Below, one piece after another: positions 5,826-45,936 of a stretch of 64,000 nucleotides of DNA. Origin of the DNA: a virus; IMG/VR virus record IMGVR_UViG_3300050505_000370; one strand, written 5' to 3'. The notes under the pieces were generated by a model. That model was not told the DNA's origin and did no database searches. It worked only from the letters and a program-made list of their open reading frames with translations. The translations under genes were made by a program, and so were the position numbers. Position 1 is the stretch's first letter; the number at the start of each line of letters is the position of its first letter.

Positions 5826-5827
5826 GG

Positions 5828-6103
5828 ATGTTCCTTAAACTCCTAAAGGCCTTCGTTAAAATCTACTCTGAGGTTCGCCGCATAAGGGAGATCCTCGAAC
5901 TTGTCTACTCTCAGGAGATAGAAAGGGGGGAATTCATAAAGAGGTATAGCAAGAAGCCTCTCCCCCCTGCTTGGGCTGAAGTAACCTATAGGCCCCCCAA
6001 AAGAGATGAGTATGATGAGATAGAGAAAGCCCTTGAGATGGAAGAGGATGAGATAGGGATTGCCCTTGAGGACTATAAGGAGGAGGAAGAGGTTGATCTA
6101 TGA
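5828..6103 (+). CDS. hypothetical acidic protein (91 aa)
   Basis: ORF in a tight array. Confidence 0.55.
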   Translation: MFLKLLKAFVKIYSEVRRIREILELVYSQEIERGEFIKRYSKKPLPPAWAEVTYRPPKRDEYDEIEKALEMEEDEIGIALEDYKEEEEVDL

Positions 6104-6975
6104 TGGATGAAGAAGGAGGTATGCAAAATGATGGGGTTAATTCTAGTGGGGATTCTCCTGATCCTTCTGCCCTCTTTGCCGCTATTAAAGAGAAGGCTGC
6201 TTCCAAGGCTTCAGGGGCAAAAGGGGGGAAAAGTAAGCCGGAGCCGAAGAAGAAGCCAGATGTACGGGCGCTATCGAAATTAACATTACCCTTAACTTTG
6301 AATCAATACTTCGGCCAATACATCCCCAACATCCAAAACTGCCTTATCTTCCTAGAGAGATTCGTAGGGGATGATGAGACAGTTGCGAAGGTGATTAAAA
6401 CCTGGAGGAAGGTCAACAAAACCACCCACCTCTCCGACAGCTTAGACCTAGACAAACTAGCTTCTGAAAGTGGGATCTCCAAGGGAGAATTTCGCCGCAT
6501 GATAATCAACGCCCTAGACCTTCTAGGCGACGAAGAAGCCATGATGATGCTTCGCCTCAACAAGACCAACCTTATCCAAAAGTCCATAGAGGTAGCCCTT
6601 AGCGACGACGACCCCAACTCCTACCTAGAAAGGGGGAAGCTTTTGGAGTTCTATGGCTTCCGCCTTATCCCCAAGGGAGCACAGGTTAGCATCAACGTAG
6701 ACAAATCTACTAATATTGCCAACTCCAACAACACTGCCACCCTCAACGTTGGCCTCCCTTCCTTCTCTTCCTCCATCGCTGAAACAGAGAAGGTAGTTGC
6801 TTCCGCTATGCAGGAGGTTATAGAGGAGTCACAAGGACAGGAAGAAATAGATATAGAGGGGGTAGTGGTAGAGGAAGGGCAAGAAGGGCAAGAAGGGCAA
6901 AAGCTCCTCCCTGAACCCTCCTCCTTTCTCGACCTAGTAACCCAAACTGAAGGAGTAGAGTTGAAAAATGCCTAA
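6100..6975 (+). CDS. hypothetical protein; possible terminase small subunit / DNA-binding protein
   Basis: Lies two genes upstream of terminase large subunit. HTH-like stretch LDKLASESGISKGEFRRMI. The call rests on position only. Confidence 0.3.
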   Translation: MMDEEGGMQNDGVNSSGDSPDPSALFAAIKEKAASKASGAKGGKSKPEPKKKPDVRALSKLTLPLTLNQYFGQYIPNIQNCLIFLERFVGDDETVAKVIKTWRKVNKTTHLSDSLDLDKLASESGISKGEFRRMIINALDLLGDEEAMMMLRLNKTNLIQKSIEVALSDDDPNSYLERGKLLEFYGFRLIPKGAQVSINVDKSTNIANSNNTATLNVGLPSFSSSIAETEKVVASAMQEVIEESQGQEEIDIEGVVVEEGQEGQEGQKLLPEPSSFLDLVTQTEGVELKNA

Positions 6976-7288
6976 TCCCCCCAATGGTTCCAATAACCCC
7001 AACGGCCCAAACTTCCCCACAAAGGTAATAGGAAAGTGTGTTCAGTGCCAAACCCCCATCTCTACCCCCTTCCCTCCCCTAGTAACCTTCAACTCCCCCA
7101 CAGTCTCCTCTATCCTAGTCCCCCACCCAAAGGGGGCAACCTGCCCAAAATGTAACCTATGGCATATGATTATCATCAACGCCCCTGCTTGCTCCATTGC
7201 CCTAGCTCTCCTCCCTGCTGAGAAGCCAACCCTTAATGATGATAACTTAATCGAAGAGGTGAAATCCCTCCCCTCCATTATTCAATAA
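6968..7288 (+). CDS. hypothetical zinc-ribbon protein (106 aa)
   Basis: CVQC ... CPKC pairs; 8-nt overlap with the previous ORF. Confidence 0.5.
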   Translation: MPNPPNGSNNPNGPNFPTKVIGKCVQCQTPISTPFPPLVTFNSPTVSSILVPHPKGATCPKCNLWHMIIINAPACSIALALLPAEKPTLNDDNLIEEVKSLPSIIQ

Positions 7289-10751: not shown

Positions 10752-12982
10752 TGTCCTATATCCCCTCCCCCTCAATCCTCAACTCCAACCCCAATGAACC
10801 CATCTACAAGGAATATGTCTGCCCTCCCTACCCTCAAGGAGGCTCAATCAAGGAGATAGAACTCCATGAGCAGAAGCTCCTTGCTTGGGTTCGTCGATGT
10901 AGAGAAGAAGGAGAGGCCTATTTCAAATCCTGCCGCGCCTATGAATCCCTTGATACAGTCCTAGACATCCTCTGTGGGAAGATAAACCTCCAGGCCCCCG
11001 CTGAGAAGCTCTCCCTTATATTCCTCAACACCATTAAAAGAAACATAAAGGAGATGATCGCTACCCTCGCCAATATCCGTCCCTCTTGGTACTACGAAGC
11101 TAACTCCACCAAAGACCCTAATCTTCTTAAACAAGCGAGAATCCAAAATGGCCTATCTGATGATTGGTATAGAAGGAGATTCATAGATAGAGAGATAAAG
11201 AAGATGCTCCAATGGGCTCTCCCAGAAGGTACAAGTTATATAAGCCCCGTCTGGAACCCCCACCTCGATGGCCTCAACCAAGGGAACATAGAAATTAAAC
11301 ATTATAGGTATAATCAAGTCTATCCAACCCAACTAGGCCCTGAGTTCGACCTCCAACGTGCCTACACAGTTACCATGGAGGAGGAAACCCCCTACCTCCG
11401 AGTCTGCAAGATGTTCCCCCATAAGGCCCATCTTATCCGTCCTGACCGTGGGATGGTAAAGGTTAATAGCCTTTTCCAAAGTGGGGTAAGGGTGGTAACA
11501 GATGCAATAGGGGCAATCCGCCAAGCAGACCAAAAGAAACCTAACCAAACCCACCCCTCCCCAGTCACCGATGTCTTCTACACCTACGTTGATGACTTCT
11601 CCACTAACCGCCTTGACTACCCCATTCCTATGGGGGAAGGGAATAACTGGGGATATATAGTCCCTGTTAAGGGGGATAAGATCCTCTCCCATTATACCTC
11701 CTCAGGGGAGCCAGTCCTCAAAACAGCCACCTTTGAGGACTGCTATCTCTACCCAAACCGTCGCCTTATTATCTCCACCAACACTTGCATCCTCTACGAC
11801 GGTCCTTCCTTCTGGTGGCATGGGAAGGTCCCTATTATTAAGTATAGCCCTGACAGTTGGGTTTTCTCCTATCTTGGCTTCTCAGTTGTCTCAGAGGTTC
11901 TCTCCCTTGAGAAGTCCTCCATTAACATGCGCCGCGCTGTGGAGGATGCCCTTCAACTATCCATAGACCCTCCCCTTGTGGTAGATGAAATCTCTGTGGC
12001 GAAGTCAAAGGCTGGATCCAACTCCATTCGCACCCCAGGTAAGCGCATCCGAGGGAAGCTCCAGATGGGGGACTTCATAAAGCCCATTCTCCCCCCTACC
12101 TCCTATAAGGTAGGCATGGAGCACTTCAATTACATCCAAGAAGTAGAGGACAAAATAGCCTATATAATGGGGGTACCTGATCTCAAGGAACTCCAAAAGG
12201 CCAATCAAATCCCCTCCGCTGACTCCATAGAGAAGTTCTTCCAGCAGGCGGGGGCTATCGTAACAGATATGTCTCGCTCAATGGACCCGGTTGTCTGCCA
12301 AATGGCGGATATGAACCGCTATTATTTCTTCCAGTTCTACGATCTAGCCAAACGTATTCGCATCCTAGGGGAAGATGGGATAACCCCAGAAGACTACGAC
12401 TTTGAGCCCGGCACCCTTATCCCCACTTCCCTCCCCTATGAACCCCTCTCAACCGATGGCACCTCCATTATCTCCTCCACCTATGTCCAGAGGGTAAAGC
12501 ACCACATCAACTCCTTCTCCACTGCTATCCATCCGACTTCCCTCCATCAAATCACCAATATGGCAAGGAAGCTCCTTAGGATGCAAGCCTCTAAGGTTAA
12601 CCCCCTTCTTATCTCCGCAGAGACAATTGCTAAGGATCTGGATATTGAGAATTGGGGACACCTCGAAGGGGATACCGAGTTAGAGAAGAAGATGTCTGAG
12701 CTTAAGATAATGCAGCAGCAGCAGAACCAAGCCCTCTTTGCTCAGGGAATAGTCTCCCTTATCCTCCAGCAACTAGCCCAACAAAATTCCCCTGAGGCTG
12801 CCCTAGGGGAAGGAGCTTCTCAACTAGCAGAAGCCCTAAAGGGGGGAATAGAAGGTGGAGGGGAAGGTGGAGCGGGAGGGGTAGCAACGGGGGGAGCCCC
12901 AGTAGGCCGTCCTCCTTCCTTCAACAATGAACCTAGACAGGTAATAAAGGATGGGGGAACTAGGTCTATAGTAGCTACCTAA
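10751..12982 (+). CDS. portal protein
   Basis: 743 aa, downstream of terL and upstream of scaffold/capsid. Gly-rich flexible C-terminus. The call rests on position and size plus general portal-like character. Confidence 0.7.
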   Translation: MSYIPSPSILNSNPNEPIYKEYVCPPYPQGGSIKEIELHEQKLLAWVRRCREEGEAYFKSCRAYESLDTVLDILCGKINLQAPAEKLSLIFLNTIKRNIKEMIATLANIRPSWYYEANSTKDPNLLKQARIQNGLSDDWYRRRFIDREIKKMLQWALPEGTSYISPVWNPHLDGLNQGNIEIKHYRYNQVYPTQLGPEFDLQRAYTVTMEEETPYLRVCKMFPHKAHLIRPDRGMVKVNSLFQSGVRVVTDAIGAIRQADQKKPNQTHPSPVTDVFYTYVDDFSTNRLDYPIPMGEGNNWGYIVPVKGDKILSHYTSSGEPVLKTATFEDCYLYPNRRLIISTNTCILYDGPSFWWHGKVPIIKYSPDSWVFSYLGFSVVSEVLSLEKSSINMRRAVEDALQLSIDPPLVVDEISVAKSKAGSNSIRTPGKRIRGKLQMGDFIKPILPPTSYKVGMEHFNYIQEVEDKIAYIMGVPDLKELQKANQIPSADSIEKFFQQAGAIVTDMSRSMDPVVCQMADMNRYYFFQFYDLAKRIRILGEDGITPEDYDFEPGTLIPTSLPYEPLSTDGTSIISSTYVQRVKHHINSFSTAIHPTSLHQITNMARKLLRMQASKVNPLLISAETIAKDLDIENWGHLEGDTELEKKMSELKIMQQQQNQALFAQGIVSLILQQLAQQNSPEAALGEGASQLAEALKGGIEGGGEGGAGGVATGGAPVGRPPSFNNEPRQVIKDGGTRSIVAT

Positions 12983-13006
12983 CTTCTAAGGAGAAGCAAA
13001 AAAAGG

Positions 13007-13240
13007 ATGTCCACAGAGCCAAAATCAATCCCCTTACCCTCCCATGCTCTCAAGAAGGTTATAAACACCTATCAAGTCCATACCTCTGACATCGAAGCCC
13101 TCCTTCTTGAGCTAAAAGAAGCGAAGGTTTCAGGTAAGCTTATCATCGACATATACTTAGGGGGGATTGGAGGGGTGGAATTTGAGCAACTTCTCAAGAG
13201 GTATAAGGTTCCTCCGCAACCCCCTAACCCCTCTCCTTAG
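13007..13240 (+). CDS. hypothetical protein (77 aa)
   Basis: ORF after portal, before the terminator. Confidence 0.5.
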   Translation: MSTEPKSIPLPSHALKKVINTYQVHTSDIEALLLELKEAKVSGKLIIDIYLGGIGGVEFEQLLKRYKVPPQPPNPSP

Positions 13241-13357
13241 CCTCCTTTTGGAAAACCTCTTGCATCTCCCCTCCCTCCTATGCTATATCTCCTCTGACAC
13301 ACTCGTTTCCGTTTTGATGTTTCTGGAATCCCTGGAGAGTTCAACGGTAAAACTCGC

Positions 13358-13395
13358 AGAGGTCCACCCCAAAAAGGTGGGCCTCTTTTTCTTTT
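13358..13395 (+). terminator. Rho-independent terminator
   Basis: Stem AGAGGTCCACC (13358-13368) / GGTGGGCCTCT (13376-13386), 11 bp with one G-U pair, loop CCAAAAA, then TTTTCTTTT. Confidence 0.7.
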
Positions 13396-13419
13396 CCTGA
13401 CTTCTCTGGAGGCTAAAAA

Positions 13420-13752
13420 ATGGCGTCAATGCCAATGGGATCAATCTTTAGCGGTGGGGGAAACACCCCCCAAGGTGCCTCTCCAACCGCCCCCTCTCCA
13501 TCGCCTTCTCTCCCCATAGGAGGGCAAGGCCCCGATCCCTCAGCCTCCCCAAATCCAGAAATGTCAGCAGCCCGACAACTCATCTCCCAAGTAGCCAAGG
13601 TAGCTTCTTCCCTAAAAGAACTTGCCTCAACCTACCCAGAGATGGGTCCAACGGCTAACCAAGCTATGGAAGTCCTCCAAGGGGGGATGACCAAGGCTAT
13701 TCAAGGGATGAGAAATTCAGAAGGAGAAGGAAACTCCCCCTCCTATGCCTAG
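13420..13752 (+). CDS. hypothetical protein (110 aa), Pro/Ser-rich N-terminus
   Basis: ORF after the terminator. Confidence 0.5.
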   Translation: MASMPMGSIFSGGGNTPQGASPTAPSPSPSLPIGGQGPDPSASPNPEMSAARQLISQVAKVASSLKELASTYPEMGPTANQAMEVLQGGMTKAIQGMRNSEGEGNSPSYA

Positions 13753-13883
13753 ATTGGACCTTACCACTTTTACTACCCATATCCAATCTTCCCCTAGAAG
13801 GGCGGCCTTCCGCACTCCCCTTCCCCTTTCCCTCCCTACCTTACTAACCCTTAAACCCACTGCACCCCCAAAGGAGGTGGACT

Positions 13884-14840
13884 ATGCCTAAGCCAAAACC
13901 AAAACTCGACCCTGATGTTGAGGAGTTCTACAAGCAACTTGTTGACAAAGGGGGCTTATCCGAAGAGGAGCAAGACCTCCTAAACACCCTTCTTACCAAA
14001 GAAGAGGTACAAAAGGAATTCAAATCTGGAGTCCATGCAAGGAAGCTAACAGACCGAGAAGTGGATGCTACTAAGAAGGAAAGGAAGGCCTTTGAGGAAG
14101 CTCACACCCAGAAGATGAAGGAGCTTGAGGATCTCGAAACCTCCCTCACCACCGCCTCCACCTCTGAGGTAGCTGCTATAAAAGCCCAACTTACCTCGGT
14201 CAAGAAGCAACTTTACTCCATTTGGGAGAAAGCTCAGGAATACAAAGGGGGGAATGAGTTCCTTAAGGAGGTTGGGTTAGAGGATGTTTCCAAGATAGGG
14301 GACACCCCTCCCACCAAGACCAAGAAGGACGACGCCCCTACCCCTACAGCAGAGGAAATCCTCAAGCAGGTAGAAGGGTCAGTCTCCACTGACATAAAGC
14401 GCCTTGCTCAATGGACGGTGGACTCCCGCAAGATAGAGAGGGAGTATGAAGCCCTTACTGGGAAGCAGATAGATTGGGATGACTTCCAAACCAAGATAGT
14501 AGCAGCCAAGGGGGACTACGCAAAGGCCTACCTAGAAGGCTATGACATCCCTGCCCTCCGTGAGAAGAAGAAAGAATCTGAGATAGAAGCTCGCCTCCAA
14601 AAGCAATTTGACGAAAAGCTCTCCCAAGAGCGGGCAAAGCTCTCCCTTCCTACCAATGAAAGGAAGATGGAGGGGAGTGACTTCTACAAAGCAGTGGAGT
14701 CAACCGTCTCCCCCGAGGAGAAAAAGGCTAGGGAACTTGTTGCCCCCGGCATCACCGATAAAGCAGAAACAATTTCAGCCGCCGCTTCCATGTTCTCTAA
14801 GATAATGGCGAAGAAGGAGAAGGAAGAGGCGACTGTTTAA
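13884..14840 (+). CDS. scaffolding-like protein
   Basis: 318 aa, Lys/Glu-rich and predicted helical, immediately upstream of the capsid gene. AAAGGAGG upstream of ATG. Confidence 0.55.
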   Translation: MPKPKPKLDPDVEEFYKQLVDKGGLSEEEQDLLNTLLTKEEVQKEFKSGVHARKLTDREVDATKKERKAFEEAHTQKMKELEDLETSLTTASTSEVAAIKAQLTSVKKQLYSIWEKAQEYKGGNEFLKEVGLEDVSKIGDTPPTKTKKDDAPTPTAEEILKQVEGSVSTDIKRLAQWTVDSRKIEREYEALTGKQIDWDDFQTKIVAAKGDYAKAYLEGYDIPALREKKKESEIEARLQKQFDEKLSQERAKLSLPTNERKMEGSDFYKAVESTVSPEEKKARELVAPGITDKAETISAAASMFSKIMAKKEKEEATV

Positions 14841-14904
14841 CCCCACCTGAGCAACCCAACAGGTAAGCTAAGGAGGGCTATAGGGAAGAAGGAGAAGGAG
14901 AAAT

Positions 14905-16032
14905 ATGGCAAACCTGTTGGACGAATTAAATGCTACCACTCTGAAGGTAATTAGGCCAAAGGTTATAGCAGACTTGGCATTCAAAAAGAAGTCTCCCTTC
15001 CTGGCCTTCCTCAGAGCTCACGCCCTCCCACACTCAGGGGGTGCTTTCATCCAGAATACCTTCGCCTACGCAAAAAGCATAGGTGGGAGCTACGCGAAGG
15101 GTGATACCTTCGACATGAACCGGGTACAGCTTCTCGACGCGACGAAGTTCGATGTCCGCTACTATGAGCAGAATGATACCCAGTTTGAGGAAGACATCGA
15201 CGTGGAGAACAAAGGTGAGGCGGCGGTTTTCTCCATCATAACCGCCCACCAAGAGGTCCTCATGCTTACCATGAATGAGAACCTCGCCATTGAGCTTAAC
15301 CGCCATGGTCAGCCCTCCTCCACCACCGTTTTGGATAGTCGCACCACCTCTATCAATGGCATCTCTGAGATGTATAACGATGGGGTGACAAACTCTTGGG
15401 ATGGTAATGTCTTCCCTCTCTATGGTCAGCAAACCCGCAATGGCACCATAGGAGCCGCCCTTAACTCAGTTCCCTTCTTCTTTGGGGACTCCACGGGGGC
15501 AGCCGGGCCAGTTACCTATGCTAACCTCCTTGAGCAATACCTTGATGCCTCTGGAGGTGATTGGTCGCCTAATATCTGCCGGGGTAACAAGGCAGTCTTC
15601 GCCTACATTATGGAAAGGCTACAACCTCAGCAAAGGTTTGGTTCCGAAAAGAACTTCATTTGGGGTGGGGAAAGCTTCTCCCTTATGGGAATGGAGTTCA
15701 TGCGGGATGAGTATTGCCCCTCTAGTCGCTTTGGCATCAACGACCCCCGCACAGGTAACTACCTTACCTCTACCTTTACCTCAGCAGCCACCCCCGCTGC
15801 TGCCTCAAACCTCCCCGCCTCCACCACCATCACGGTAGGGGAGACGGTCTTCATGGAGAACACCAAGACCTTCCAGATGCACCTTTCGGACTCTGAGAGA
15901 TTCCGCTTCGGGTGGACGGGGTATAAGGAGGCTCAGAACTCGACCATCGTGGCAGGGCAACTCCTTGTGGCCCTCAACGTCCTCTGCCAATACCCATGGG
16001 CGAATAAGCAGGGGTATGGGATTAATTCCTAA
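14905..16032 (+). CDS. major capsid protein
   Basis: 375 aa after the scaffold-like gene. Doubled GGAG Shine-Dalgarno. A hairpin follows the stop codon. The call rests on position and size. Confidence 0.7.
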   Translation: MANLLDELNATTLKVIRPKVIADLAFKKKSPFLAFLRAHALPHSGGAFIQNTFAYAKSIGGSYAKGDTFDMNRVQLLDATKFDVRYYEQNDTQFEEDIDVENKGEAAVFSIITAHQEVLMLTMNENLAIELNRHGQPSSTTVLDSRTTSINGISEMYNDGVTNSWDGNVFPLYGQQTRNGTIGAALNSVPFFFGDSTGAAGPVTYANLLEQYLDASGGDWSPNICRGNKAVFAYIMERLQPQQRFGSEKNFIWGGESFSLMGMEFMRDEYCPSSRFGINDPRTGNYLTSTFTSAATPAAASNLPASTTITVGETVFMENTKTFQMHLSDSERFRFGWTGYKEAQNSTIVAGQLLVALNVLCQYPWANKQGYGINS

Positions 16033-35540: not shown

Positions 35541-38500
35541 ATGTCCACTTCTATAGATGACGTTATCAACAAGTACCTACCTAAGGGGGCTTCTCCTTCC
35601 ACCTCTCCCCAGAAGTCTGCCTCCAATGACCTATTCAATGAAGCTTATTCCAAATTAGAAAAGGATTTTGAGTATACCTTTGGTAAGCCCCTTACCTCTA
35701 AGGACAATCCTCTTCACCATCGTCCCTCTCTAGAAGGTAGAGCTAGAGATGCTAGGACTAGGGATAAGACCCCTGAGGAACAAGCGTGGATTGACAAGAG
35801 GGCTAATGAACTTGGCCTTGATGTGTTAACTGCTTCAGGGAAGGAAAGTTGGGCAACCGGCCCCCATAAGCATATAGAGGCAAAAGATCCCACAGACATT
35901 ATTATCAACAAGTATATCAATAGAGCCTCCTCTACCCCCTCTACCCCCTCTACCTCTTCCCATCAAATAGGAGGAGAGACTCCCTCTCCCTTACCACCTT
36001 CGACTGCCATAGCAGGGAAAGGTCTTGATCTCTCCTCCTTCTCTGCTGGTAAGAAGAGTTTAGAGAGGACAGTTAAGAAGAAACTCTCCATAGACAAGAG
36101 GGCTCTCCCCGCCTTCATCTCCTCCATCCAAGGGGAAACAGATGAGGATAGGGAGAAGCAGGTACAGGATATAATCTCTCGATATGGGCATACCCCAACA
36201 GGGCCTCCCCCTAAGAATGCCTACCAAGAGGTTATCTCTAGAATCCCCTCCCCTATCCCTATCCCCTACTCCTATGAGTCAGCACAGGAGATAGGAGGGA
36301 ACCTCTCCAACACCGCCACTCTTGCCTATAATGTGGCGATGGGGAAGCCAGGGGTTGCTTTTGATCCTGCCTATGAGAAGGAACAGAAGGATAACTTAGT
36401 TACTGGAGTGATAACCCCCCAGATAGATGAGTTCAAAAAAGCCTTGGCAGATATGGAGGAGGAGCATAAGCTCCACCCTGAGATCCCCATAGGGGATGCC
36501 CGCCTTTTCTCCCTAAAAGCTATGCTCCATACCATAGCGGGGGCCGTCCCCTTTGCTGGCCCTTCTGCTTCTAGAGCTATAGAGAACTTCCAGAAGGGGA
36601 GAGTTGAGGAAGGCATCCTCGATAGCATGGAAACCCTCGCCATTGTCGTCCCCGCTGTTCATGGGGCTAGAGGAGGGATAGGGAAGGGGGAGGCTACCCC
36701 TAAGACTCTCTCCCCCAAGGAGGAGTTTAAGACAATCGGGAGGCAGAAGGAGCTAGTTCCTCCTACTCCTAAAGAGGCACCTACTACTACTACTACTACA
36801 ACCATTCTCCCTAAAGCCCCGCCCGTTGATACTACAGGCCTCACAATGCCGGGGATGGGTCAAGCTATAGCTGATAACATGTATCAGTCTATGTTTGATA
36901 ACCTAAGCAAGAATAAGTATCCAGAGCCGGGTAAGAAGGCCAATCAAAGTCCTTTCGCCCTTCACCTAATGGAGGCTTGGGATAAGGGAGAGATTAAGAG
37001 CATAGAGGACATAAAGACCCTAGCTAGTAAATTCAATGCCAAGAAGTTGACTCCCCCCGAACCAACAATGTCCCCCACTGGCTCTGGCACCTCCGTTCTC
37101 TCCCAGAAGGTACTAGATGGGAGAGATGAGACAGAAGCTCTAATCACCACAACTCCCTCCAAGGGAGGCTATGAAGTCAACGACCTTGTTCGCCATGAAG
37201 CCTTTGCAGGTGGAGAGCCCCTTAAGGTAAAGGAGGTTAACCCTGACCATATAGTAGTGACCAAGCCTAGTGGGAAGAAACTCACCATCTATAACAACTC
37301 TACTATCTATGGGGAGTTGGAGAAGAAGGTTGGGGAGGGGTGGGTGAAGGGGGAGACTCCTAAGGTAGAAGAAGCTAAGGTTGAAGAAGAGGCCAAAACC
37401 AAGGAACCTCCAACAGTTCAAAAACTCTCCTTCCCTTTCAACAACCATGAAGTTACATTCCCTGATGGTACTCGCTATAGGATATTCAGAAACACCGACT
37501 CCTCGGGTCCTGGTTGGTTTCTTGAGGGGACCACTGAGAAGGGTAAGTCTACTATGGAGCCCCATACTTCATGGGGAAAGGATCGTCACCTTGGGTATAC
37601 CAAGGCGGAGGCCCTAGAAACCCTCCAAAAGGGACATGAGGAAGGGAAGTATAAGGGATTTGAGTTAGACCCTAAGGCTCCCTTAACCCCTGAGGCTAAG
37701 GAGATAGCGGAGACTTTCCACTCCATTAATAACTATAGTGATGAGGATGTAGTAAAGGCTTATAGCTTAGTAGAGGACCCAAATGATGAGACAGGATGGA
37801 AAGATGGACTAACTCCAACAGCAGTTCATGAGAATTGGATAGATGGTAAGGTTAGTGAGTTTGCTAAGGAGATGAGGGTTTCCCCACAAGAGGCTTATGA
37901 ACGTCTGATAAATATGAAGAAGGAGGAATACCTTCCCGAGAAGAAGACCTTAACTAGGAAGGAAAAGAAGGTAAGGGAGCTTCAAAAAGGAAAGGCAGAG
38001 AAGGCCCTTCAAAGAAAAGGGGATGAGGCGAAGTTTGATGAGAAGTTAGAAGGAGAGGGGTATATCCCCTTCACCTCCCTCAAAAAGAATCAAACCCTCT
38101 ACTCCCCAGAAGGCCCAGTCAAGGTGAAGGTGATAGGGGAGAAGACTATTGTGGTGAGGGATGCTGAGGGAGATTTGATTCATGTGTCTAAGGGGAGTGA
38201 GTTGCATAAGGGGCTTTCCCTTGAGAAGGCTAAGACTACTAATCCTAATCAAGAGTATATAGATTCCTTAATCCATGACCATAAGAGGGAAGCCCTTGGG
38301 AATAAGCTTGTGGCTGAGGGTAAGTATGGATATACTGAGCCTCAAGCAGAGCTAGATGGGATCTCCTTAGCATCCTTAGAGGATGAGATAGGTCAAAGGA
38401 GTGCAGAGTTATTAAAGGAAGGTAAGATAACACAAGAGGAACTAGACAACATATTATATACTGATTTTAGTGAAGGAAAGGGTAAATCAGTCGGAGCAGC

Positions 38501-40787
38501 CCACCCCTCCAACTTCCCAGTAACCCCCGACATAACCCAACTAGGGGAGGATATTCGTCAACGTGCCCAAGGGAATATCCCTACTGAAGATTATTCCTTA
38601 GGGGATCGTCTAGCTAGGGGAATAGCTAAGACCAAGGAGACTATCCAGAACATCTCCGATGCTGCCACCGCTACCGCCCACCATATCTGGGAGGTGGTTA
38701 AGCGCCCCTCAGAGATAATCTCTGAATTCCAAAAGGTGGTAGATCAGTGGCAAGGGAAGAGACAAGAGGGGATGCTTTCTTCTAAAGACTTCGAGAAGGT
38801 AGTCAAAAAAGCCATAACCTCGAAGCTCCAACGGGATGCGATGACCCTCTACCGGGATACAGGTGGGGATAAGACTCTCCTCCAAGAAGGTGCCCTTCGA
38901 TCCCCCGACCCAATGCGAAGAAAGGCCTATGAAGCAGCCCTCTCCCTAACCCAAGATCAAATAGATATAGTCAATAACGTTGGCTCTTACTTCGACGCAA
39001 TGCTTCAGCATGGGCTAGATGAAGGGATGCTTTGGACTCAGCTAGAGAACTACATCAATAGAGTCTACGACAAGGAGAGTGCCCTTCGCCTTATAAGCAG
39101 GGTCCAAGGGGACTTCCAACAAGGCATCCTCCCCACCGCTTTCCAACATGCAAAAAGGCGCTTCTATAAATACCTCCTCGATGCAGAAATGCAGGGGATG
39201 AAGCCTAAGACCACCGACATAGCCGAACTAATCCCTATCTACAACGCTGAATTCAACAACACTATGGCTGCGAGAGGGTTCGTTAGGGATGCTTATGGGG
39301 TGATTGCCCCAGATGGCCGCCCTGTTCTACTTGTCCTTGGCTCTAAATCCACCAAGACCTCCCTTGCTGGAAACACCTACGACATAATAAGGCCAAAGGG
39401 GAAGAAGGATGCCTTTAACCCCACCTACCCTGACCTTATTGTTGACCCCTCAGGCTACGTCGCTAAAGAACTTCCTGGGTTCAAAAACTGGAAGTTGCTA
39501 GAATGGGGGGATGATGGAAGGCCGGTCTATGTAGAAGCCCAGATAGGTATCCATCCTGACTACATAGGGGAGTTTAAGAGGAGATTGGGGAATAGCCCCT
39601 TCGATGAATCCCCTGTTGGGAGGTTAGCCAAGCGAGTTAAGGCAGAAATAAAGGCCCCCAAGATGGCCTTCTCAGCCTTCCACCAAGTAGCGGTAGATGT
39701 CCATGCCCTTACCCACCGCGTCTTCAACCCTTACCAAGGGGTAGATGTTGCTAGAATCCCTAGGCAGTTTATGGACTATATCCTTAAGGGGGAATCCCCT
39801 GACACCATGAAAACCCCTCTCTATGACCCCTCCAACCCAATGCATAAAAAGGCAGTCTACTCGGGGGTTAAGTTGGTGGACTCTAGGGGGATCTCTTCCT
39901 TTGCTGAGGGGGTAAGTGGGGGAGAAAGTATCTTCAAAATCCCCATCCTAGGTAAAAGGTTAAGTGCCTACACCCACTGGTTATTCGAGGACCACATTCC
40001 CCGCCTTAAACTCATGTACTATGAGCAAGCCTACGTTAGAAACATGAAGGGGTATGCCAAGCAATTAGCTTCAGGGAAGATAACTGAGCCTGAGATTGCT
40101 CGAATGACTGCTAACCAAACTAACGCTTCTTTTGGGGAACTCAACTATGAGCAGATGGGCCGGTCTAAGTTCGCCCAAGACATCATGGGGTTTGCCCTTC
40201 TAGCCCCTGACTTCACAGAAGCCCGCCTTCGCTATGTGGGGCAAGCCCTTAAACCCTACGGGAGGGAGCAAAGGATAGCTCTTGGCCTTGGTGCCCTCGC
40301 CATGTACACAACAGCTAGAATCCTAAATGGGGTGTTCAACAATGGGGAAACCCACTGGGATGACCCTAAGCATGCGTTTGAGGTGAAGGTAGGGGAGAAA
40401 TGGATAGGGGTTAGGTCAGTCCCCGGCGACTTAATCCACCTATATAATGAACCGGGGCAATCTATCGTTGACCGCTTATCTCCCCCAATCCAAATAGGAG
40501 CTACCCTTGTAACAGGAAGGGATAGGTTTGGGGAGAAAATAGTCCCCCAAGATAAGCTCTCCATTACCAAAGAAGCCGCAAAGCAACTCATCCCCATGTC
40601 ATTTAACAAAGACCTCCAAACCTCCATCCTCCAAGCCATTGGCCTCTCTGTCCGCAAATACGTCCCTCCTTCAAAGACCTCCTACTTTGAAAAGAAAGGG
40701 GAGCTTGAGGAGAAACAAAAGGAGCTTAGACAAAAGGCAAGGGAGAACAAGAAGATATTCCCACTATCTCAAACGCCCGAACAATAA
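35541..40787 (+). CDS. giant internal virion/ejection protein candidate (gp16-like position), 1748 aa
   Basis: Largest ORF in the window, following two smaller core-like ORFs. N-terminal ~120 aa carry an H..GRARD ... HKH pattern (LAS/M15-peptidase-like, tentative). Confidence 0.5.
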   Translation: MSTSIDDVINKYLPKGASPSTSPQKSASNDLFNEAYSKLEKDFEYTFGKPLTSKDNPLHHRPSLEGRARDARTRDKTPEEQAWIDKRANELGLDVLTASGKESWATGPHKHIEAKDPTDIIINKYINRASSTPSTPSTSSHQIGGETPSPLPPSTAIAGKGLDLSSFSAGKKSLERTVKKKLSIDKRALPAFISSIQGETDEDREKQVQDIISRYGHTPTGPPPKNAYQEVISRIPSPIPIPYSYESAQEIGGNLSNTATLAYNVAMGKPGVAFDPAYEKEQKDNLVTGVITPQIDEFKKALADMEEEHKLHPEIPIGDARLFSLKAMLHTIAGAVPFAGPSASRAIENFQKGRVEEGILDSMETLAIVVPAVHGARGGIGKGEATPKTLSPKEEFKTIGRQKELVPPTPKEAPTTTTTTTILPKAPPVDTTGLTMPGMGQAIADNMYQSMFDNLSKNKYPEPGKKANQSPFALHLMEAWDKGEIKSIEDIKTLASKFNAKKLTPPEPTMSPTGSGTSVLSQKVLDGRDETEALITTTPSKGGYEVNDLVRHEAFAGGEPLKVKEVNPDHIVVTKPSGKKLTIYNNSTIYGELEKKVGEGWVKGETPKVEEAKVEEEAKTKEPPTVQKLSFPFNNHEVTFPDGTRYRIFRNTDSSGPGWFLEGTTEKGKSTMEPHTSWGKDRHLGYTKAEALETLQKGHEEGKYKGFELDPKAPLTPEAKEIAETFHSINNYSDEDVVKAYSLVEDPNDETGWKDGLTPTAVHENWIDGKVSEFAKEMRVSPQEAYERLINMKKEEYLPEKKTLTRKEKKVRELQKGKAEKALQRKGDEAKFDEKLEGEGYIPFTSLKKNQTLYSPEGPVKVKVIGEKTIVVRDAEGDLIHVSKGSELHKGLSLEKAKTTNPNQEYIDSLIHDHKREALGNKLVAEGKYGYTEPQAELDGISLASLEDEIGQRSAELLKEGKITQEELDNILYTDFSEGKGKSVGAAHPSNFPVTPDITQLGEDIRQRAQGNIPTEDYSLGDRLARGIAKTKETIQNISDAATATAHHIWEVVKRPSEIISEFQKVVDQWQGKRQEGMLSSKDFEKVVKKAITSKLQRDAMTLYRDTGGDKTLLQEGALRSPDPMRRKAYEAALSLTQDQIDIVNNVGSYFDAMLQHGLDEGMLWTQLENYINRVYDKESALRLISRVQGDFQQGILPTAFQHAKRRFYKYLLDAEMQGMKPKTTDIAELIPIYNAEFNNTMAARGFVRDAYGVIAPDGRPVLLVLGSKSTKTSLAGNTYDIIRPKGKKDAFNPTYPDLIVDPSGYVAKELPGFKNWKLLEWGDDGRPVYVEAQIGIHPDYIGEFKRRLGNSPFDESPVGRLAKRVKAEIKAPKMAFSAFHQVAVDVHALTHRVFNPYQGVDVARIPRQFMDYILKGESPDTMKTPLYDPSNPMHKKAVYSGVKLVDSRGISSFAEGVSGGESIFKIPILGKRLSAYTHWLFEDHIPRLKLMYYEQAYVRNMKGYAKQLASGKITEPEIARMTANQTNASFGELNYEQMGRSKFAQDIMGFALLAPDFTEARLRYVGQALKPYGREQRIALGLGALAMYTTARILNGVFNNGETHWDDPKHAFEVKVGEKWIGVRSVPGDLIHLYNEPGQSIVDRLSPPIQIGATLVTGRDRFGEKIVPQDKLSITKEAAKQLIPMSFNKDLQTSILQAIGLSVRKYVPPSKTSYFEKKGELEEKQKELRQKARENKKIFPLSQTPEQ

Positions 40788-40827: not shown

Positions 40828-41259
40828 ATGGAATCAATTTGGAACCCTGCAACCCTAGGAAAAGAAGAAAGAGGAAAGGTTGTTAGTCACGTTGGTCACA
40901 TTGGTCAGAACTGTCCCCAAGAGAGCCCCTTTGAAGAAGAAGAAACAGAAGAAGCAAAGAAAGAGAAGGAGGCAGGTATGCCGATTACAAAGGAGAAACC
41001 TAACTCGAATACAGTGGGAATCTTTGCCATCTTCTTAACCCTCGTAGTCCAAACTGCTGCTATTGCTTACTGGGCTGGAGGGATAAGTGCTAGGCAAACA
41101 ACCTTTGATAGTAGCCAAGATAAGATAGACCAACGGCTACAGTACATTCAAACTCAGAATGAGGTAGCTGCTAAGAACTATGCTAAGATGGAGGGGAGAT
41201 TGGATGCTATGGAGAAGAATATCCAAACTCTTCAGGTGGAGAAAGCAAAAAGGAGGTAG
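40828..41259 (+). CDS. membrane + coiled-coil protein (lysis-associated candidate)
   Basis: Alternative start ATG 40978 (AAGGAGG upstream) gives a 93-aa protein with an N-terminal TM (VGIFAIFLTLVVQTAAIAYWAGG) and a coiled coil. Confidence 0.45.
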   Translation: MESIWNPATLGKEERGKVVSHVGHIGQNCPQESPFEEEETEEAKKEKEAGMPITKEKPNSNTVGIFAIFLTLVVQTAAIAYWAGGISARQTTFDSSQDKIDQRLQYIQTQNEVAAKNYAKMEGRLDAMEKNIQTLQVEKAKRR

Positions 41260-41261
41260 TT

Positions 41262-41540
41262 ATGCCAGATGAAGGAAGTGGTGGGGGGAGTGGGGGATTT
41301 GAATGTCCCCCATGTAAGCTTCTCCTTTGTAGTGGAGGGGAAGTGGCGGGAGGGGCTGCTTCCCTAGTCCAATATGCTCAAGCTTATGGGGCGGTTGTTC
41401 TCCAAAGATCCCTAATGGGAAGGGCTGTCTCTAAGGAGCTAAAGGATAGGCATGCAAAGATCCTTGAGAGACAGGGGGATACTTTGGCTGAAATGCAAGG
41501 GGAGTTAGAGGAGATGGCAAGGGAAGTTGGGGGGTTGTAA
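41262..41540 (+). CDS. hypothetical protein (92 aa)
   Basis: AAAGGAGG upstream. Confidence 0.45.
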   Translation: MPDEGSGGGSGGFECPPCKLLLCSGGEVAGGAASLVQYAQAYGAVVLQRSLMGRAVSKELKDRHAKILERQGDTLAEMQGELEEMAREVGGL

Positions 41541-41830
41541 TGGTAGCAGGTAAATCCCCTCAAAACACTTCGGCTAGACTAGCTGAGTTATTCATGATAG
41601 TAACTCAGCTAGTCGAAAAGCTTGACCTTCTATCCAAGAAAATGGATGTTATCCAAGAAATAAAGATGACAAAGATGGCTGAGGACATTGCCAAACTAGA
41701 CAAGCAAGCGGCACTGGCAGGGCAGAACCTCGATAGACTCCAAAAGGTAGTCTATGGGATTATAACGGCGGTTAGCCTCCAACTCCTAACGGTTATAACT
41801 GGGGTGATAGTATGGCTGATAAAGAAGTAG
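41540..41830 (+). CDS. coiled-coil protein with C-terminal TM (XhlA-like architecture)
   Basis: C-terminus VVYGIITAVSLQLLTVITGVIVWLIKK; the call rests on architecture only. Confidence 0.4.
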   Translation: MVAGKSPQNTSARLAELFMIVTQLVEKLDLLSKKMDVIQEIKMTKMAEDIAKLDKQAALAGQNLDRLQKVVYGIITAVSLQLLTVITGVIVWLIKK

Positions 41831-42249
41831 ATTTGGACTCCCTTAAGGTCCGCCTTTTAGGGCTTAGGGCTTCTTTGGATAGGGAGGTGTGGACGGATAT
41901 ATTAAGGGCGAGTGTAGCTGCTATTGTGGTGGATATGGAAAGTCAGTATATAGTTGACTCCACCTCTACAGCAGATGAGCTATTTGGGTATATAGAGGGG
42001 GAGTTAGTGGGGAAACCTCTTGATGTTCTCCTTCCTAGCCACTTAAGACCTACCCATAAGGAGAATGTGAAGAAGTTCTCTGATAGTCCTAGCAATAGGA
42101 CTATGGGGATAGGGGCTGCTCTGAATATAGTTGGGGCTAAGAAGGTAGCAGTGGGGAAGTATGAGGAGATTAAGCTTGTTATATCCCTTAGGACTAAGAT
42201 GATTGGGGAGGCTAGGTGTGCCGTTGCTATCATCACTGAAAGATTTTAG
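41812..42249 (+). CDS. stand-alone PAS domain protein, FixL-like (haem-PAS type)
   Basis: STADELFGYIEGELVGKPLDVLLPSHLRPTHKENV...RTMGIG aligns by eye with the FixL haem-PAS, including the proximal His position. Confidence 0.55.
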   Translation: MADKEVDLDSLKVRLLGLRASLDREVWTDILRASVAAIVVDMESQYIVDSTSTADELFGYIEGELVGKPLDVLLPSHLRPTHKENVKKFSDSPSNRTMGIGAALNIVGAKKVAVGKYEEIKLVISLRTKMIGEARCAVAIITERF

Positions 42250-42517
42250 TTCTATTAAAAGTCTCTATCTCTACTCTCCACTTCCACTCCTCCTCCCTAC
42301 ACCAAAGGCAAATCTCCACAAAGGGATACCCCTCCATCTTCGGGTGCCACTTATGCACCTCTCTCCTATCCACCAACTCTAAGGCAGGGGGGAACTCTCC
42401 ACTGGTTAGCTCTTGGCGGCAAATAAGGCAGTCCTCCCCACATTCCCCCTCGAAGTGGAGGAGAAGGAGGAAGTCTATGGAGTCGAGAAGGGGAGGGAGG
42501 GAGAAGGGGTTACTCAT
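42233..42517 (-). CDS. hypothetical Cys-rich protein (94 aa)
   Basis: Last gene of the - arm; its 3' end overlaps the 3' end of 41812-42249 by 17 nt. Confidence 0.5.
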   Translation of the reverse strand: MSNPFSLPPLLDSIDFLLLLHFEGECGEDCLICRQELTSGEFPPALELVDRREVHKWHPKMEGYPFVEICLWCREEEWKWRVEIETFNRTKIFQ

Positions 42518-42740: not shown

Positions 42741-42928
42741 ATCTTCCTCACTTTCACCTTAGTTATCTGATTATATCCAAACATCTGAAGAAGCTCCTTT
42801 GCCCTCTCCTCCTTCTCTCGCCTGTAGACAGGGTTGGAAGAAGGGAAGTGAGATATATGTTCTCCTTCTTCTATCTCAAACTCTAACTTGACTAGATGCT
42901 TTCTTACCTTGCCGGTGGAGTCAATCAT
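42737..42928 (-). CDS. hypothetical protein (63 aa)
   Basis: ATGA overlaps on both sides. Confidence 0.5.
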   Translation of the reverse strand: MIDSTGKVRKHLVKLEFEIEEGEHISHFPSSNPVYRREKEERAKELLQMFGYNQITKVKVRKI

Positions 42929-45900
42929 AAGCTAACCTCCTTCATCTCGGCTAGGTTGTGGCCGACTTTTATATCCACCTCGCAGTGGAAGCCCTCTGGC
43001 ATTGTCCAATTCACCAACACCTTACTCCTTCTCCTCATCACTGTCAACACCTTCTTCATCACCTCCTCCCACTCCTCTTCCCTCGGTTCAAATCTAAAAT
43101 CATCATGCACCATATTAACCAACCTAGCTTTATCCAATAAACCTGGGGTAGAGAGGTAAGGTTGGAGGCTCCCCCCTATCATAGAAAGGACTTCTCCCCC
43201 ATCTTCTAAGATCCTAAGGTTCTCCCTCATGTGGCAGAAGGCGTTAGCCGCCACAGGATAAGCCATAGCTTGTTGAGCTTGCTCCCCCTTCTTTATAGAA
43301 AGGACATTCCCCCACTTATCATACCTCGGCTCCCCTGCTGCCCAAAACCACCGACGAAAGCCAAAGGGGATGTCAATATAGTTTTGATTGTCTGCTAAGG
43401 CAATTATCTTATCCTGAAATTTGAATACCCTTGGGAAAAGCCTCCTCAGCAACTCATAAAGCTTCTTAACCTTCTTCTTCCCCTGTGCCTCAGCCTCAAC
43501 CTGCCACCTCGCCATTCCTGTCCTTAGGTCCACCTCCAAAGGATTACTCCTCTTCTTCCCCCACCCCTTCAACACCTCCTCCATCTTAGGATTAAAGTCC
43601 TCCTTATACCTCTCATAGCACCCCTCTTCCGACAGTCCAAACCCTATCCCAAGTATAGCATGTTTAGCTTGGTCATCTCTTAGACTCTTATAAGCTCCCT
43701 TAACCTCCTTCAACCACCCCCTAAGCTTCTCATCCTCCCACCCTATAGCCACATCTGCCTCAGGAAGACTGACCATGTGGGCAGTTACATAACTGTGGAT
43801 GTCAAGTCTAGCCAGCCTTATATAGTCTGGGTCTTCTGCTAAGAACCCCAACATAAGGGCATGGTAGCTCTTGTAGTCCAACTTAGTCAGAACATGCCCT
43901 TCCTTTGCCTCTATAGTCTCATTGAACTTAATGGCTAAGGTAGAGTGGACTGGCCCCTGTTGGATATTAGGGTCCCTGCTAGAGGTCTGCACAGTTGGGG
44001 GGCGGAAAGTGAAGGTTGTATGGACTCTACCGTCCTCCCCTGGCTTCCATCCCTTCTTCCCATTCTTCCCTCCCCCCAAGAAGGAGCCTTCCATCTTTGT
44101 TAGCTCCCTATACTCCACCATCAAACTATAAACTTTATCCCCTGTCTTAATAGCCAGCCCCTTCAACACCCCCTTCGAGGTAGAAAGGTCCTTCTCTTCA
44201 TCCTCAAAGTCATGAAGGTCAATCTTACTTCTACTTTCCTTCGCTATATTAATAGCTAACTTAGCAGCTATCTTCTCATGCTTCTTATATTTAATAAGGT
44301 CACTTACCTGTGGGGGACTATTGGGGTTAAAGGGGATGACTTTGCAATACCTTCTCACAGTCCTAAAGCCCCTCCCCTGACAAGCAGGGCATACCATGAA
44401 GACCCCATCACTCCCCTTTATCTCCCCATTCTGCCTACAAAATCCACAACTCCCTTGCTTAAACCCCACCACTCCCAACCCCGCCCCCTCAGCTACCTCT
44501 TCTAAGGGATTGGTAAAAAGTGTCTCCACCCCCACCCCCATCTTAGTCGCCGCCAAAATAAGCTGCACCTTTAAATCAGCAGGGACATTCTTATACCCCT
44601 CCTCTGGGTGGTATCTATTGAACTGACTAGATACCCTCTCCTTTAACTCCCCCTCTATCTCCCCCTTCCTAAGGTGGATGGCTTCCTTAAAGACCTCTTG
44701 CTTCTTTTGGTTAACAGGGTAGCCTCTATCTTGAGTCTTAATAAGGATAGGCTTTACCTTATAGACAAGTTCCTCATATCCCCTCCAAAGATCCCTATCC
44801 TTTAGCCTCTTAGGTAGGTGCTCCATTATCCTGAGGGGTGCATCTGTATCGGCTATGCCATAGAAGGCCAAACTTTGCCCTGAGAGATGTTTCCAAGGGA
44901 AGGGGAAGTTGAAGTAACTAGCTGTAGCTTGCAGCCCTATAGGGATGTCACTTTGGTAGTGGTGCATCATCCACATGGTATCATCGACCCTACCATTTAT
45001 AACAACCCCCGCTTTTTGGAGGATAGGGCGGTCAAAGTCCCAGAAGTTATGCCCTACTTTGGGGTTAGGTAAGGACATGATCTTCTTAAATATACTGATG
45101 AAAGGTTCCTCCCAAGGGAAGGCTATCCCCGAGGAGGGGGCTATGGAGAGTTGGACTTGCTTTATATACTCCCCATAGTCATCTATCTCATCCTCTTCCT
45201 TTCCTATACTTTCCTTCGTTTCTATATCTATAGAGACTAGGGTGAGGGGGTTTCCCTTTAGGTGCTGCCATAACCCTACCGCTGCTTCATAGGAAGGAGA
45301 GAGGATATACTTAAGGGACTTATCTTCCATAGGGTTCATTATGAACTCAGGGGAGGTTCCTTGAGCTATCCCAAAAGCTTTTAGGTAGTCAAAGAGAAGA
45401 ATCCCCATTAGATGTGCGTTTCCCCTTCTGATGTAGGAGGGGTGGAAGGTTGGGACAACGAGAGTAGAGGGATAACGAGAAGAAGCAAAGACATACCCTC
45501 TAACCATGTTAATATTGAGATTATGACCCTCAAGTCCGGTGAGGTGCTTAAAAGGAACAGCACCAAGAGCAAGAATAACCTTAGGCTTGAACTTATTGAC
45601 AACCCTATCGAAATGGACTTTGCAGTGGTTAACCGCTTCATATTCCCACCCCATCCCTAGCAAGTGGTCCTGAGGGGGACGACACATGCATAGGTTGTTA
45701 AAGGTTAGTTGACCCCTAGTGTGTTTTGCCTTCTCCCTTATTACCCTATGGAGGATACTCCCTGCTTGGGCAGAGGGGCGAAAGGGGAGGCCTTCGAGGA
45801 TTTCGTTGTAGCCAGGACTTTCCCCAGTGAGAAGAAGGGGGGTAGAGCCATTTCCCTCAGGTAGAATAAATCCCTCCCCTATATCCTCAAGGGGGCAGCC

Positions 45901-45936
45901 TTGACATTCTTTAGGCTTTTGAATGAATTGAGGCAT
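42925..45936 (-). CDS. polA: Fusion of family-4 UDG-like domain, 3'-5' exonuclease and family A DNA polymerase
   Basis: UDG: CQGCPL, GESPGYNE, HPSYIRR. Exonuclease: VSIDIETKE, GHNFWDFD, YGIADTD. Polymerase: DYKSYHALML (motif A), RDDQAKHAILGIGFG (motif B), VHDDF (motif C). CxxC...CxxC insert between exonuclease and polymerase. Confidence 0.9.
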   Translation of the reverse strand: MPQFIQKPKECQGCPLEDIGEGFILPEGNGSTPLLLTGESPGYNEILEGLPFRPSAQAGSILHRVIREKAKHTRGQLTFNNLCMCRPPQDHLLGMGWEYEAVNHCKVHFDRVVNKFKPKVILALGAVPFKHLTGLEGHNLNINMVRGYVFASSRYPSTLVVPTFHPSYIRRGNAHLMGILLFDYLKAFGIAQGTSPEFIMNPMEDKSLKYILSPSYEAAVGLWQHLKGNPLTLVSIDIETKESIGKEEDEIDDYGEYIKQVQLSIAPSSGIAFPWEEPFISIFKKIMSLPNPKVGHNFWDFDRPILQKAGVVINGRVDDTMWMMHHYQSDIPIGLQATASYFNFPFPWKHLSGQSLAFYGIADTDAPLRIMEHLPKRLKDRDLWRGYEELVYKVKPILIKTQDRGYPVNQKKQEVFKEAIHLRKGEIEGELKERVSSQFNRYHPEEGYKNVPADLKVQLILAATKMGVGVETLFTNPLEEVAEGAGLGVVGFKQGSCGFCRQNGEIKGSDGVFMVCPACQGRGFRTVRRYCKVIPFNPNSPPQVSDLIKYKKHEKIAAKLAINIAKESRSKIDLHDFEDEEKDLSTSKGVLKGLAIKTGDKVYSLMVEYRELTKMEGSFLGGGKNGKKGWKPGEDGRVHTTFTFRPPTVQTSSRDPNIQQGPVHSTLAIKFNETIEAKEGHVLTKLDYKSYHALMLGFLAEDPDYIRLARLDIHSYVTAHMVSLPEADVAIGWEDEKLRGWLKEVKGAYKSLRDDQAKHAILGIGFGLSEEGCYERYKEDFNPKMEEVLKGWGKKRSNPLEVDLRTGMARWQVEAEAQGKKKVKKLYELLRRLFPRVFKFQDKIIALADNQNYIDIPFGFRRWFWAAGEPRYDKWGNVLSIKKGEQAQQAMAYPVAANAFCHMRENLRILEDGGEVLSMIGGSLQPYLSTPGLLDKARLVNMVHDDFRFEPREEEWEEVMKKVLTVMRRRSKVLVNWTMPEGFHCEVDIKVGHNLAEMKEVSL

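Follow-up and report, generated by a model that had tools for sequence, protein, structure and literature searches.

The stretch of viral DNA considered here, 64,000 nucleotides from IMG/VR virus record IMGVR_UViG_3300050505_000370 and referred to below as the window, carries on its plus strand a block of genes that includes those for a large terminase, a portal, a major head protein, and several structural proteins. The final open reading frame (ORF) of that block encodes a small PAS-domain protein, and the gene directly upstream, whose end it overlaps, encodes a tail-anchored protein that we call the partner. Two further genes for small proteins precede the partner gene (Table 1). The opposite, minus-strand block is convergent with this one and begins with small ORFs, followed by a family-A DNA polymerase with a UDG-like N-terminal domain. 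An earlier description made from the letters alone, without database searches (the sequence-only reading), had taken the PAS gene to be a phage-borne last late gene, and the protein string that it quoted is present letter for letter in the ORF. Both parts of that description agree with the gene order: the carrier is a tailed phage, with terminase, portal, and head genes in the same block, and the PAS gene ends the plus-strand structural block, a position from which we infer late expression.

Table 1. Coordinates in the window of the PAS gene, its partner, and neighbouring features
Feature	Position	Strand	Description
Giant protein gene	35541-40787	+	1748 amino acids; directly precedes the cluster of small membrane-protein genes
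Cluster gene 1	40828-41259	+	143 amino acids; one transmembrane segment at about residues 61 to 86, then a coiled-coil-like C-terminal part (i-spanin-like)
Cluster gene 2	41262-41540	+	92 amino acids; Gly/Cys-rich N terminus
Partner gene	41540-41830	+	96-amino-acid tail-anchored protein; directly upstream of the PAS gene
Possible ribosome-binding site	41801-41807	+	GGGGTGA, within the partner gene; from sequence reading
Dual-coding overlap	41812-41830	+	19 nucleotides, out of frame; partner end (..VWLIKK, stop) and PAS start (MADKEVD..)
PAS gene	41812-42249 (stop included)	+	ATG start, 145 amino acids; from ORF list and sequence
N-terminal helical extension	41833-41913	+	Residues 8 to 34; AlphaFold2/DSSP helices 8 to 21 and 24 to 34, N-cap-like
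PAS core	41914-42240	+	Residues 35 to 143 (AlphaFold2); long F-alpha helix 76 to 91, lower-confidence FG loop 92 to 105
His82 codon (CAT)	42055-42057	+	Predicted proximal haem ligand; from alignments to haem-PAS domains
Met98 codon	42103-42105	+	Candidate distal haem ligand; from gap-free alignment onto FG214 M172
First ORF of convergent block	42233-42517	-	94 amino acids; 17-nucleotide overlap with the stop end of the PAS gene
Polymerase gene	42925-45936	-	Family-A DNA polymerase with N-terminal UDG-superfamily domain

The product of the PAS gene is virtually certain to have the PAS fold. It scored 26.6 bits against the NCBIfam model TIGR00229 (PAS domain S-box), above the curated cut-off of 22.9 and with an expectation value (E) of 5.3e-6, and the next-best local NCBIfam matches were the DosP and FixL equivalog models. 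The Pfam models PAS, PAS_4, and PAS_9 all scored under their gathering thresholds (E of 0.03 to 0.2), so that in Pfam alone the protein would nearly have been left without a significant PAS match; PHROGs hold no family for it. An AlphaFold2 model built on a 24-sequence alignment (mean predicted local distance difference test score [pLDDT], 86.9; predicted template modelling score, 0.74) has strands at residues 36 to 41, 46 to 50, 106 to 113, 116 to 131, and 134 to 143, with helices between them, which is the PAS arrangement. When this model was compared with the PDB by Foldseek, 267 matches were obtained at an E value of 1e-3 or lower; the 50 among the matches listed are all PAS-fold proteins, and the top 29 are the haem domains of FG214, FixL, and DosP only. 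The root mean square deviation (rmsd) to the haem domains of DosP and BjFixL was 2.0 to 2.9 Å over about 110 columns.

Sequence comparison placed the protein in the same company. Used singly against the PDB sequences, it matched FG214 (10JX; E of 4.5e-7), E. coli DosP (about 1e-6), and FixL (3e-4 to 3e-3). A family profile built from 24 relatives and run at an E value of 1e-3 or lower strengthened these matches to 4.7e-26 for FG214, 1.5e-15 for RmFixL, 1e-13 for DosP, and about 1e-12 for BjFixL, and all 14 distinct PDB sequences that it retrieved were FG214, FixL, or DosP, with zero non-haem PAS proteins among them. The alignment to FG214 covers 76 to 77 residues without a gap at 32% identity, and that to BjFixL places query residues 36 to 103 on chain residues 16 to 82 with one gap. 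The protein thus very probably belongs to the haem-b lineage of FixL, DosP, and FG214. The sequence-only reading had argued for a FixL-like, haem-type PAS protein, with an almost gap-free FixL alignment and the same spacing of the LFG, L.P, and glycine motifs; the exclusive matches to FG214, FixL, and DosP bear this out, as do the single gap to BjFixL, the shared spacing, the TIGR00229 match, and the superposition of the model on the FixL and DosP haem domains at 2 to 3 Å. The likeness to FixL is confined to the sensor domain, in that the HisKA and HATPase_c transmitter domains are absent from the 145 residues and the FixL equivalog model gave 24.5 bits against a cut-off of 850.

Beyond about 34 N-terminal helical residues and the PAS core, the protein has no further domain. 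The extension is itself conserved, with L11, L15, R19, W27, and L31 invariant in a 17-member alignment, and by analogy with other PAS N-caps these helices may serve dimerisation or the binding of a partner.

The residues expected to hold a haem are conserved more strictly than their surroundings. His82 aligned, by HMMER and MAFFT, with the proximal ligands of FG214 (H156), RmFixL, and DosP (H77), it falls within helix 76 to 91 of the model, and it is invariant in 24 of 24 relatives; a histidine at the position of the FixL proximal ligand had been noticed in the sequence-only reading as well. Met98-Gly99 is likewise invariant in all 24, and the invariant positions of that alignment are V40, F58, Y60, L65, P75, H82, P93, M98, G99, and G108. 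Among 873 PAS domains taken from the 148 best cellular matches, the histidine is present in 97%, and position 98 is Ile in 34% (as in FixL), Met in 31% (as in FG214), and Val in 13%. The significance of these two positions comes from FG214, in which H156 is the proximal ligand in the crystal and the H156I variant is without haem, Met172 ligates the iron in a dithionite-soaked crystal and M172I perturbs the reduced form, and His175 is the distal ligand in the ferric state (bioRxiv 10.64898/2026.03.15.711900). A broad survey of PAS domains put FixL and DosP in one cluster, in which it takes a histidine on F-alpha as the signature of predicted haem binding (bioRxiv 10.1101/2023.04.23.537977). From the conserved ligands and the company of homologues, we predict that the window protein binds haem, and we think it probable. 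Because the invariant Met98 lies on FG214 Met172, the alignments suggest that a six-coordinate His/Met centre of the redox type would be at least as likely as a five-coordinate O2 sensor of the FixL type. With His82 and Met98 conserved and the distal Arg absent, it is FG214, not FixL, that stands nearest among the characterised proteins.

FG214 from Fimbriimonas ginsengisoli (PDB 10JX/10JY) is the best match by both sequence and structure. It binds haem b, and its redox or ligand state switches its oligomerisation between monomer and dimer (bioRxiv 10.64898/2026.03.15.711900). The proximal His (H156, corresponding to H82) and the Met of the RxMG motif (M172, corresponding to M98) are kept in the phage protein. 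His159 and His175 are not, their places being taken by Asn85 and by Gly101 or Ala103, respectively. FG214 further differs in carrying an N-terminal LuxR-type helix-turn-helix domain, with which it acts as a transcription factor, where the phage protein has two short N-terminal helices; and it is a cellular protein without a membrane partner, whereas the phage PAS protein is paired with one. FixL of Bradyrhizobium and Sinorhizobium shares the proximal His on F-alpha and the LFG...L.P...H...GxG spacing, and its haem domain core superposes on the window model with a Foldseek rmsd of 2.3 to 2.8 Å. It is, however, fused to a HisKA/HATPase kinase, in contrast to a separate gene beside that for a distinct membrane protein, and its distal Arg is absent from the phage protein. 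The position that is Ile in FixL is Met in the phage protein, suggesting six- rather than five-coordinate iron.

In E. coli DosP (EcDOS), for which both the sequence and the fold match are significant, the residues around the proximal His77 are nearly identical, reading LRP(T/A)H. Its distal ligand in the ferrous state is Met95 (PMC4263535). Met95 lies two positions past the phage Met98 in the alignments, and Arg97 of DosP is without a counterpart in the window protein. DosP is an 800-residue GGDEF-EAL phosphodiesterase, unlike the single-domain phage protein. In overall architecture, an N-cap helix and a PAS core with no effector domain, the phage protein resembles Caulobacter MopJ and the short LOV proteins, of which PpSB1-LOV is an example. 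No specific kinship in sequence is expected with them. The output of these proteins is protein-protein contact, but they are cellular, have a different cofactor or none, and lack a tail-anchored partner. To our knowledge, haem-PAS domains have always been described as parts of cellular kinases, cyclic di-GMP (c-di-GMP) enzymes, or transcription factors.

The sequence-only reading had also called the protein stand-alone. This holds in the sense that no other domain is attached to it, and it fails in the sense that the gene forms an obligate pair with the membrane-protein gene upstream. In each of 10 independent loci for which DNA was available, a gene for a tail-anchored protein lies immediately upstream of the PAS gene, and the pairing spans several phage backbones, on contigs of 50 to 131 kb, with differing replication modules. 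The 10 partners are 60 to 124 amino acids long, with a long N-terminal helix and one C-terminal membrane helix. By hydropathy, the membrane helix of the window partner spans residues 69 to 95 approximately and contains a conserved Gln81; a Gln or Glu within this helix is kept in most members. An AlphaFold2 model made with 21 homologues has helices at residues 8 to 57 and 64 to 95 (pLDDT, 70). A profile of the 10 partners, searched against 5.8 billion proteins, retrieved 21 members, carried by contigs whose sizes largely match those of the PAS-family contigs, which suggests that, within the sensitivity of the profile search, the partner occurs only beside the PAS gene.

The junction of the two genes is also conserved. 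An identical 19-nucleotide overlap is found in 7 of the 10 loci (the window, L001, L007, L010, L011, L017, and L020); the other junctions are a 13-nucleotide overlap in L008 and L012, of the 131-kilobase (kb) phage, a 1-nucleotide overlap in L013, and a 56-nucleotide gap in L021. On the contig of relative P0168 the overlap is 4 nucleotides, as judged from gene coordinates only. The 19 nucleotides are conserved as protein in both frames, reading ..WL(I/V)K(K/R) before the stop in the partner and M(A/G/V)xxE(V/I)(D/N) in the PAS protein, and the conservation of the PAS N terminus may in part be owed to that of the partner C terminus, or the reverse. The overlap implies translational coupling. 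Both proteins lack a signal peptide and would therefore lie on the cytoplasmic face of the membrane. It is likely that the two form a functional pair, and a physical complex of the PAS protein with its partner is, from the gene linkage, similarly probable.

These features bear on whether a haem protein of this kind would need to signal at all. The sequence-only reading had offered gas or redox sensing and ligand sequestering as alternative roles. In the second of these, the protein would act as a sink that sequesters free haem, O2, or NO and so shields late replication or assembly from oxidative or nitrosative stress. A small haem protein at high late expression could buffer such ligands, and the protein does lack an output domain. 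However, stoichiometric buffering requires very high expression, no genes for haem uptake or synthesis were found among the ORFs scanned, and the conserved N-terminal helices, like the obligate pairing with a membrane protein, speak for a specific complex instead of a bulk buffer. We regard a sink as very unlikely.

Relatives of the PAS protein were found in metagenomes. A word-indexed search of the 5.8 billion proteins retrieved one close relative only, at 63% identity, and the search was then reseeded with two further stand-alone proteins obtained from a HMMER scan. The stand-alone family so defined is rare and has 17 full-length members, the window protein included, of 141 to 153 amino acids, the relatives being 38 to 65% identical to it; four shorter relatives have 124 to 140 amino acids. 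The members lie on metagenomic contigs up to 52 to 131 kb in length, and all of those examined carry phage genes. Their backbones are diverse: one of about 70 kb with the UDG-PolA gene (the window and L007), another of about 70 kb that differs in its early region (L001), one of 131 kb (L008, L009, and L012), two of 63 kb and 73.6 kb (L010 and L011), one of 52.6 kb that has DnaB and NinG (L017), a fragment resembling a podovirus (L013), and a lambdoid-like contig (P0168) carrying RusA and a GpA terminase. No stand-alone member was found when 185,579 reference genomes of bacteria and archaea were scanned by pattern, though such a scan could miss distant copies. No match was obtained in 50,697 isolate-phage records by megablast with 11 kb around the gene or by tblastn with the PAS protein and its relative P0153; the latter search (145- to 148-residue queries, E limits of 1 and 10, 2.3 billion bases) returned fewer chance matches than expected and is to be read with caution. 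In BFVD, annotations of the PAS fold occur for proteins of giant viruses and of some uncultured phages. In the literature we found no description of a phage haem-PAS protein, of a module joining a PAS protein to a holin or XhlA, or of XhlA or holin genes paired with a PAS protein, and viruses are not mentioned in the large PAS survey (bioRxiv 10.1101/2023.04.23.537977).

The HMMER scan of 1.84 billion representatives yielded 18,277 proteins at an E value of 1e-3 or lower, most of them multi-PAS sensors. The closest cellular relatives (P0003 to P0152, for example P0035, P0057, and P0107) are up to about 5,490 amino acids long, with up to 13 tandem PAS repeats of the motif FGY..EL.G...E.L.P.R.R..H...R..Y...P..R.MG.G..L..RRKDG..FPVEISLSP. 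If the histidine rule for haem is valid, a single protein of this kind would have many haem sites. That cellular relatives repeat this His-bearing subtype up to 13 times lends some appeal to the idea that the phage protein, with or without haem, is a decoy that heterodimerises with PAS kinases or c-di-GMP enzymes of the host and thereby blocks or hijacks signalling late in infection. It keeps an N-terminal helical extension, PAS domains dimerise through their N-cap helices, and a precedent for a single-domain PAS regulator acting on kinases exists in MopJ of Caulobacter (PMC4432633). A decoy leaves unexplained why the gene is always paired, usually with an overlap, with one for a dedicated membrane protein, and a place in the late block with lysis-like surroundings would be odd for a takeover function, so that we consider it quite unlikely.

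The surroundings of the pair contain several small membrane proteins that recall lysis cassettes. The first gene of the cluster in the window matches phrog_12015, a family of unknown function (E of 2.4e-5), and the gene at its position in L008 gave weak matches to the Rz-like spanin families phrog_739 (E of 2.5e-4) and phrog_89 (E of 0.01). The product of the second gene has no Pfam, PHROG, or NCBIfam match; L007 and L008 have a gene for 75 to 92 amino acids at the equivalent position. Around the pair in relatives' loci there are two- and three-transmembrane small proteins and more proteins that combine a transmembrane segment with a coiled coil. The partner itself resembles XhlA and holin-associated proteins in its size class of about 60 to 120 amino acids, its N-terminal coiled-coil-like helix, its single C-terminal transmembrane segment, and its position amid small membrane proteins where the late genes end. 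The holin family phrog_689 was matched by three of four partners tested, at a best E value of 2.6e-4, and Pfam XhlA by one (E of 0.025), neither match being strong enough to be reliable; the window partner matches neither family. When the neighbourhood of the PAS gene in the window was searched with Pfam, PHROGs, and NCBIfam, no convincing holin or spanin emerged, the weak hints being in relatives only. Lambdoid phages keep their lysis genes between genes of the RusA/methylase type and the terminase, and P0168 sits between RusA/methylase genes and the terminase on its lambdoid-like contig.

The 1748-residue protein encoded directly before this cluster has no Pfam or PHROG match. Its counterpart in L001 (positions 1 to 7129 of that contig) has 2612 amino acids, with matches to Peptidase_M15_3, to GGDEF (weak), and to ART-PolyVal (faint), which suggests a giant protein of several domains, a cell-wall hydrolase among them, that is part of the virion or is ejected.

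We propose that the PAS protein and its partner form a two-chain, membrane-tethered haem sensor of redox state or gas that acts on a late membrane event, possibly the timing of lysis, and we place the probability of this reading at about 45%. The cytoplasmic single-domain PAS protein would hold one haem b with His82 as the proximal ligand, and Met98 of the FG loop would be a displaceable distal ligand, an arrangement shared with FG214 in its reduced form and with ferrous DosP. Neither enzymatic activity nor DNA binding would be involved; the output would be protein-protein contact through the conserved N-terminal helices, most probably with the long helix that the co-inherited and apparently co-translated partner would present to the cytoplasm. 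Together the two would make up a sensor fixed at the cytoplasmic side of the membrane. Should the redox or ligand state of the iron change, in response to O2, NO, CO, or the respiratory state, PAS dimerisation or docking on the partner might change with it, and this might tune the late event, most plausibly lysis timing. The parts of this proposal that concern lysis are held more loosely. That the pair controls lysis is a tentative suggestion, on balance doubtful, and it seems unlikely that a haem sensor fixed to a holin-like protein sets the lysis time or another late membrane decision by the oxygen or respiratory redox state of the host.

A number of observations weigh against the sensor reading. 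At the distal side of the presumed pocket, small or aliphatic residues (G101-A102-A103-L104) stand where FixL has its distal Arg, a replacement already pointed out in the sequence-only reading. In alignments that are ambiguous across this loop, no Arg or His falls at the distal Arg R220 of BjFixL, at R97 of DosP, or at H175 of FG214. Asn85 is unusual, its position being His in the relatives and Tyr, His, or Phe in the cellular domains, and the FG214 variant at this position, H159I, is destabilised (bioRxiv 10.64898/2026.03.15.711900). Some members of the FixL/DosP cluster use other cofactors (bioRxiv 10.1101/2023.04.23.537977). Contact between the two proteins has gene linkage as its sole basis, the link to lysis consists of weak family matches (E of 2.5e-4 to 0.025) and architecture, and comparison of the window with Pfam, PHROGs, and NCBIfam brought no endolysin to light close to the pair.

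The departures of Asn85 and of the missing distal Arg or His from characterised haem-PAS pockets, the weak Pfam matches, and the documented use of other cofactors in the cluster would all suit an adaptor that is free of cofactor or binds some other molecule or metal. In such a protein the His and Met would be inherited or structural, and it would serve as a scaffold or assembly factor for the membrane protein. What tells against an adaptor is that His82 and Met98 are invariant in 24 divergent relatives while nearby loop residues vary freely, and that the sole detectable homologues of characterised structure are haem proteins. We rate it as rather unlikely, and it is the main risk to the favoured reading; a decoy or a sink accounts less well for the obligate partner.

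What is already known here is the kind of domain, the haem-PAS, of which the phage protein is a fresh member. What is new is a stand-alone haem-type PAS protein that has been seen on no contigs other than phage-like or unassigned metagenomic ones and is tied to a tail-anchored protein in a lysis-like cluster, a module common to several unrelated tailed-phage backbones. If haem is bound, this would be a rare example of a virus with a cofactor-based environmental sensor of its own, and the old question of whether phages fit lysis timing or late decisions to the oxygen or energy of the host would become directly testable. At 145 amino acids the protein would then be a haem switch of minimal size and, as FG214 is, attractive to designers of biosensors. 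Should lysis be gated by oxygen or redox state, the lysis clock would have an environmental input distinct from the antiholins that sense superinfection. If haem is not bound, a clean, obligate two-gene phage module would still be left.

The suggestion in the sequence-only reading that the host might be a microaerophilic thermophile found no support. Judged by the large terminase, the closest isolates infect soil Tunturiibacter (Acidobacteriota), at no more than 27.6% identity, and a tblastn search of the whole genome of one of them, Tunturi_1 (63,169 bp), gave no PAS homologue. The UDG-PolA gene has remote matches only, to a phage from a spring metagenome and to one of Moorella (26 to 30% identity).

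Several smaller features of the locus and of related loci can be recorded. The possible ribosome-binding site of the PAS gene ends 4 nucleotides before the ATG, its G-run 7 nucleotides before it, and the string is not kept in the other loci, making it a weak candidate. No convincing promoter or terminator was found flanking the PAS gene, no terminator-like site between the two convergent blocks, and no tRNA genes when these were looked for. The first ORF of the convergent block encodes CxxxCxxC and CxxC motifs, possibly a zinc ribbon, in a product with no family match. On the 131-kb contig L008, genes for a protein-tyrosine-phosphatase-like protein, a ClpP-like protease, a Macro domain, an S-adenosylmethionine methyltransferase, and a metallophosphatase lie near the PAS pair (positions of about 600 to 2600 and 11400 to 13600), and the gene set near the pair in L008, L009, and L012 is an unusually rich candidate set for host manipulation. 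In the window, the polymerase of the convergent block matches the Pfam families UDG at an E value of 1.3e-12 and DNA_pol_A at 1e-20, and its counterpart in L007 (positions 11340 to 15377) is 1345 amino acids long, with intein and LAGLIDADG matches that point to an apparent intein insertion.

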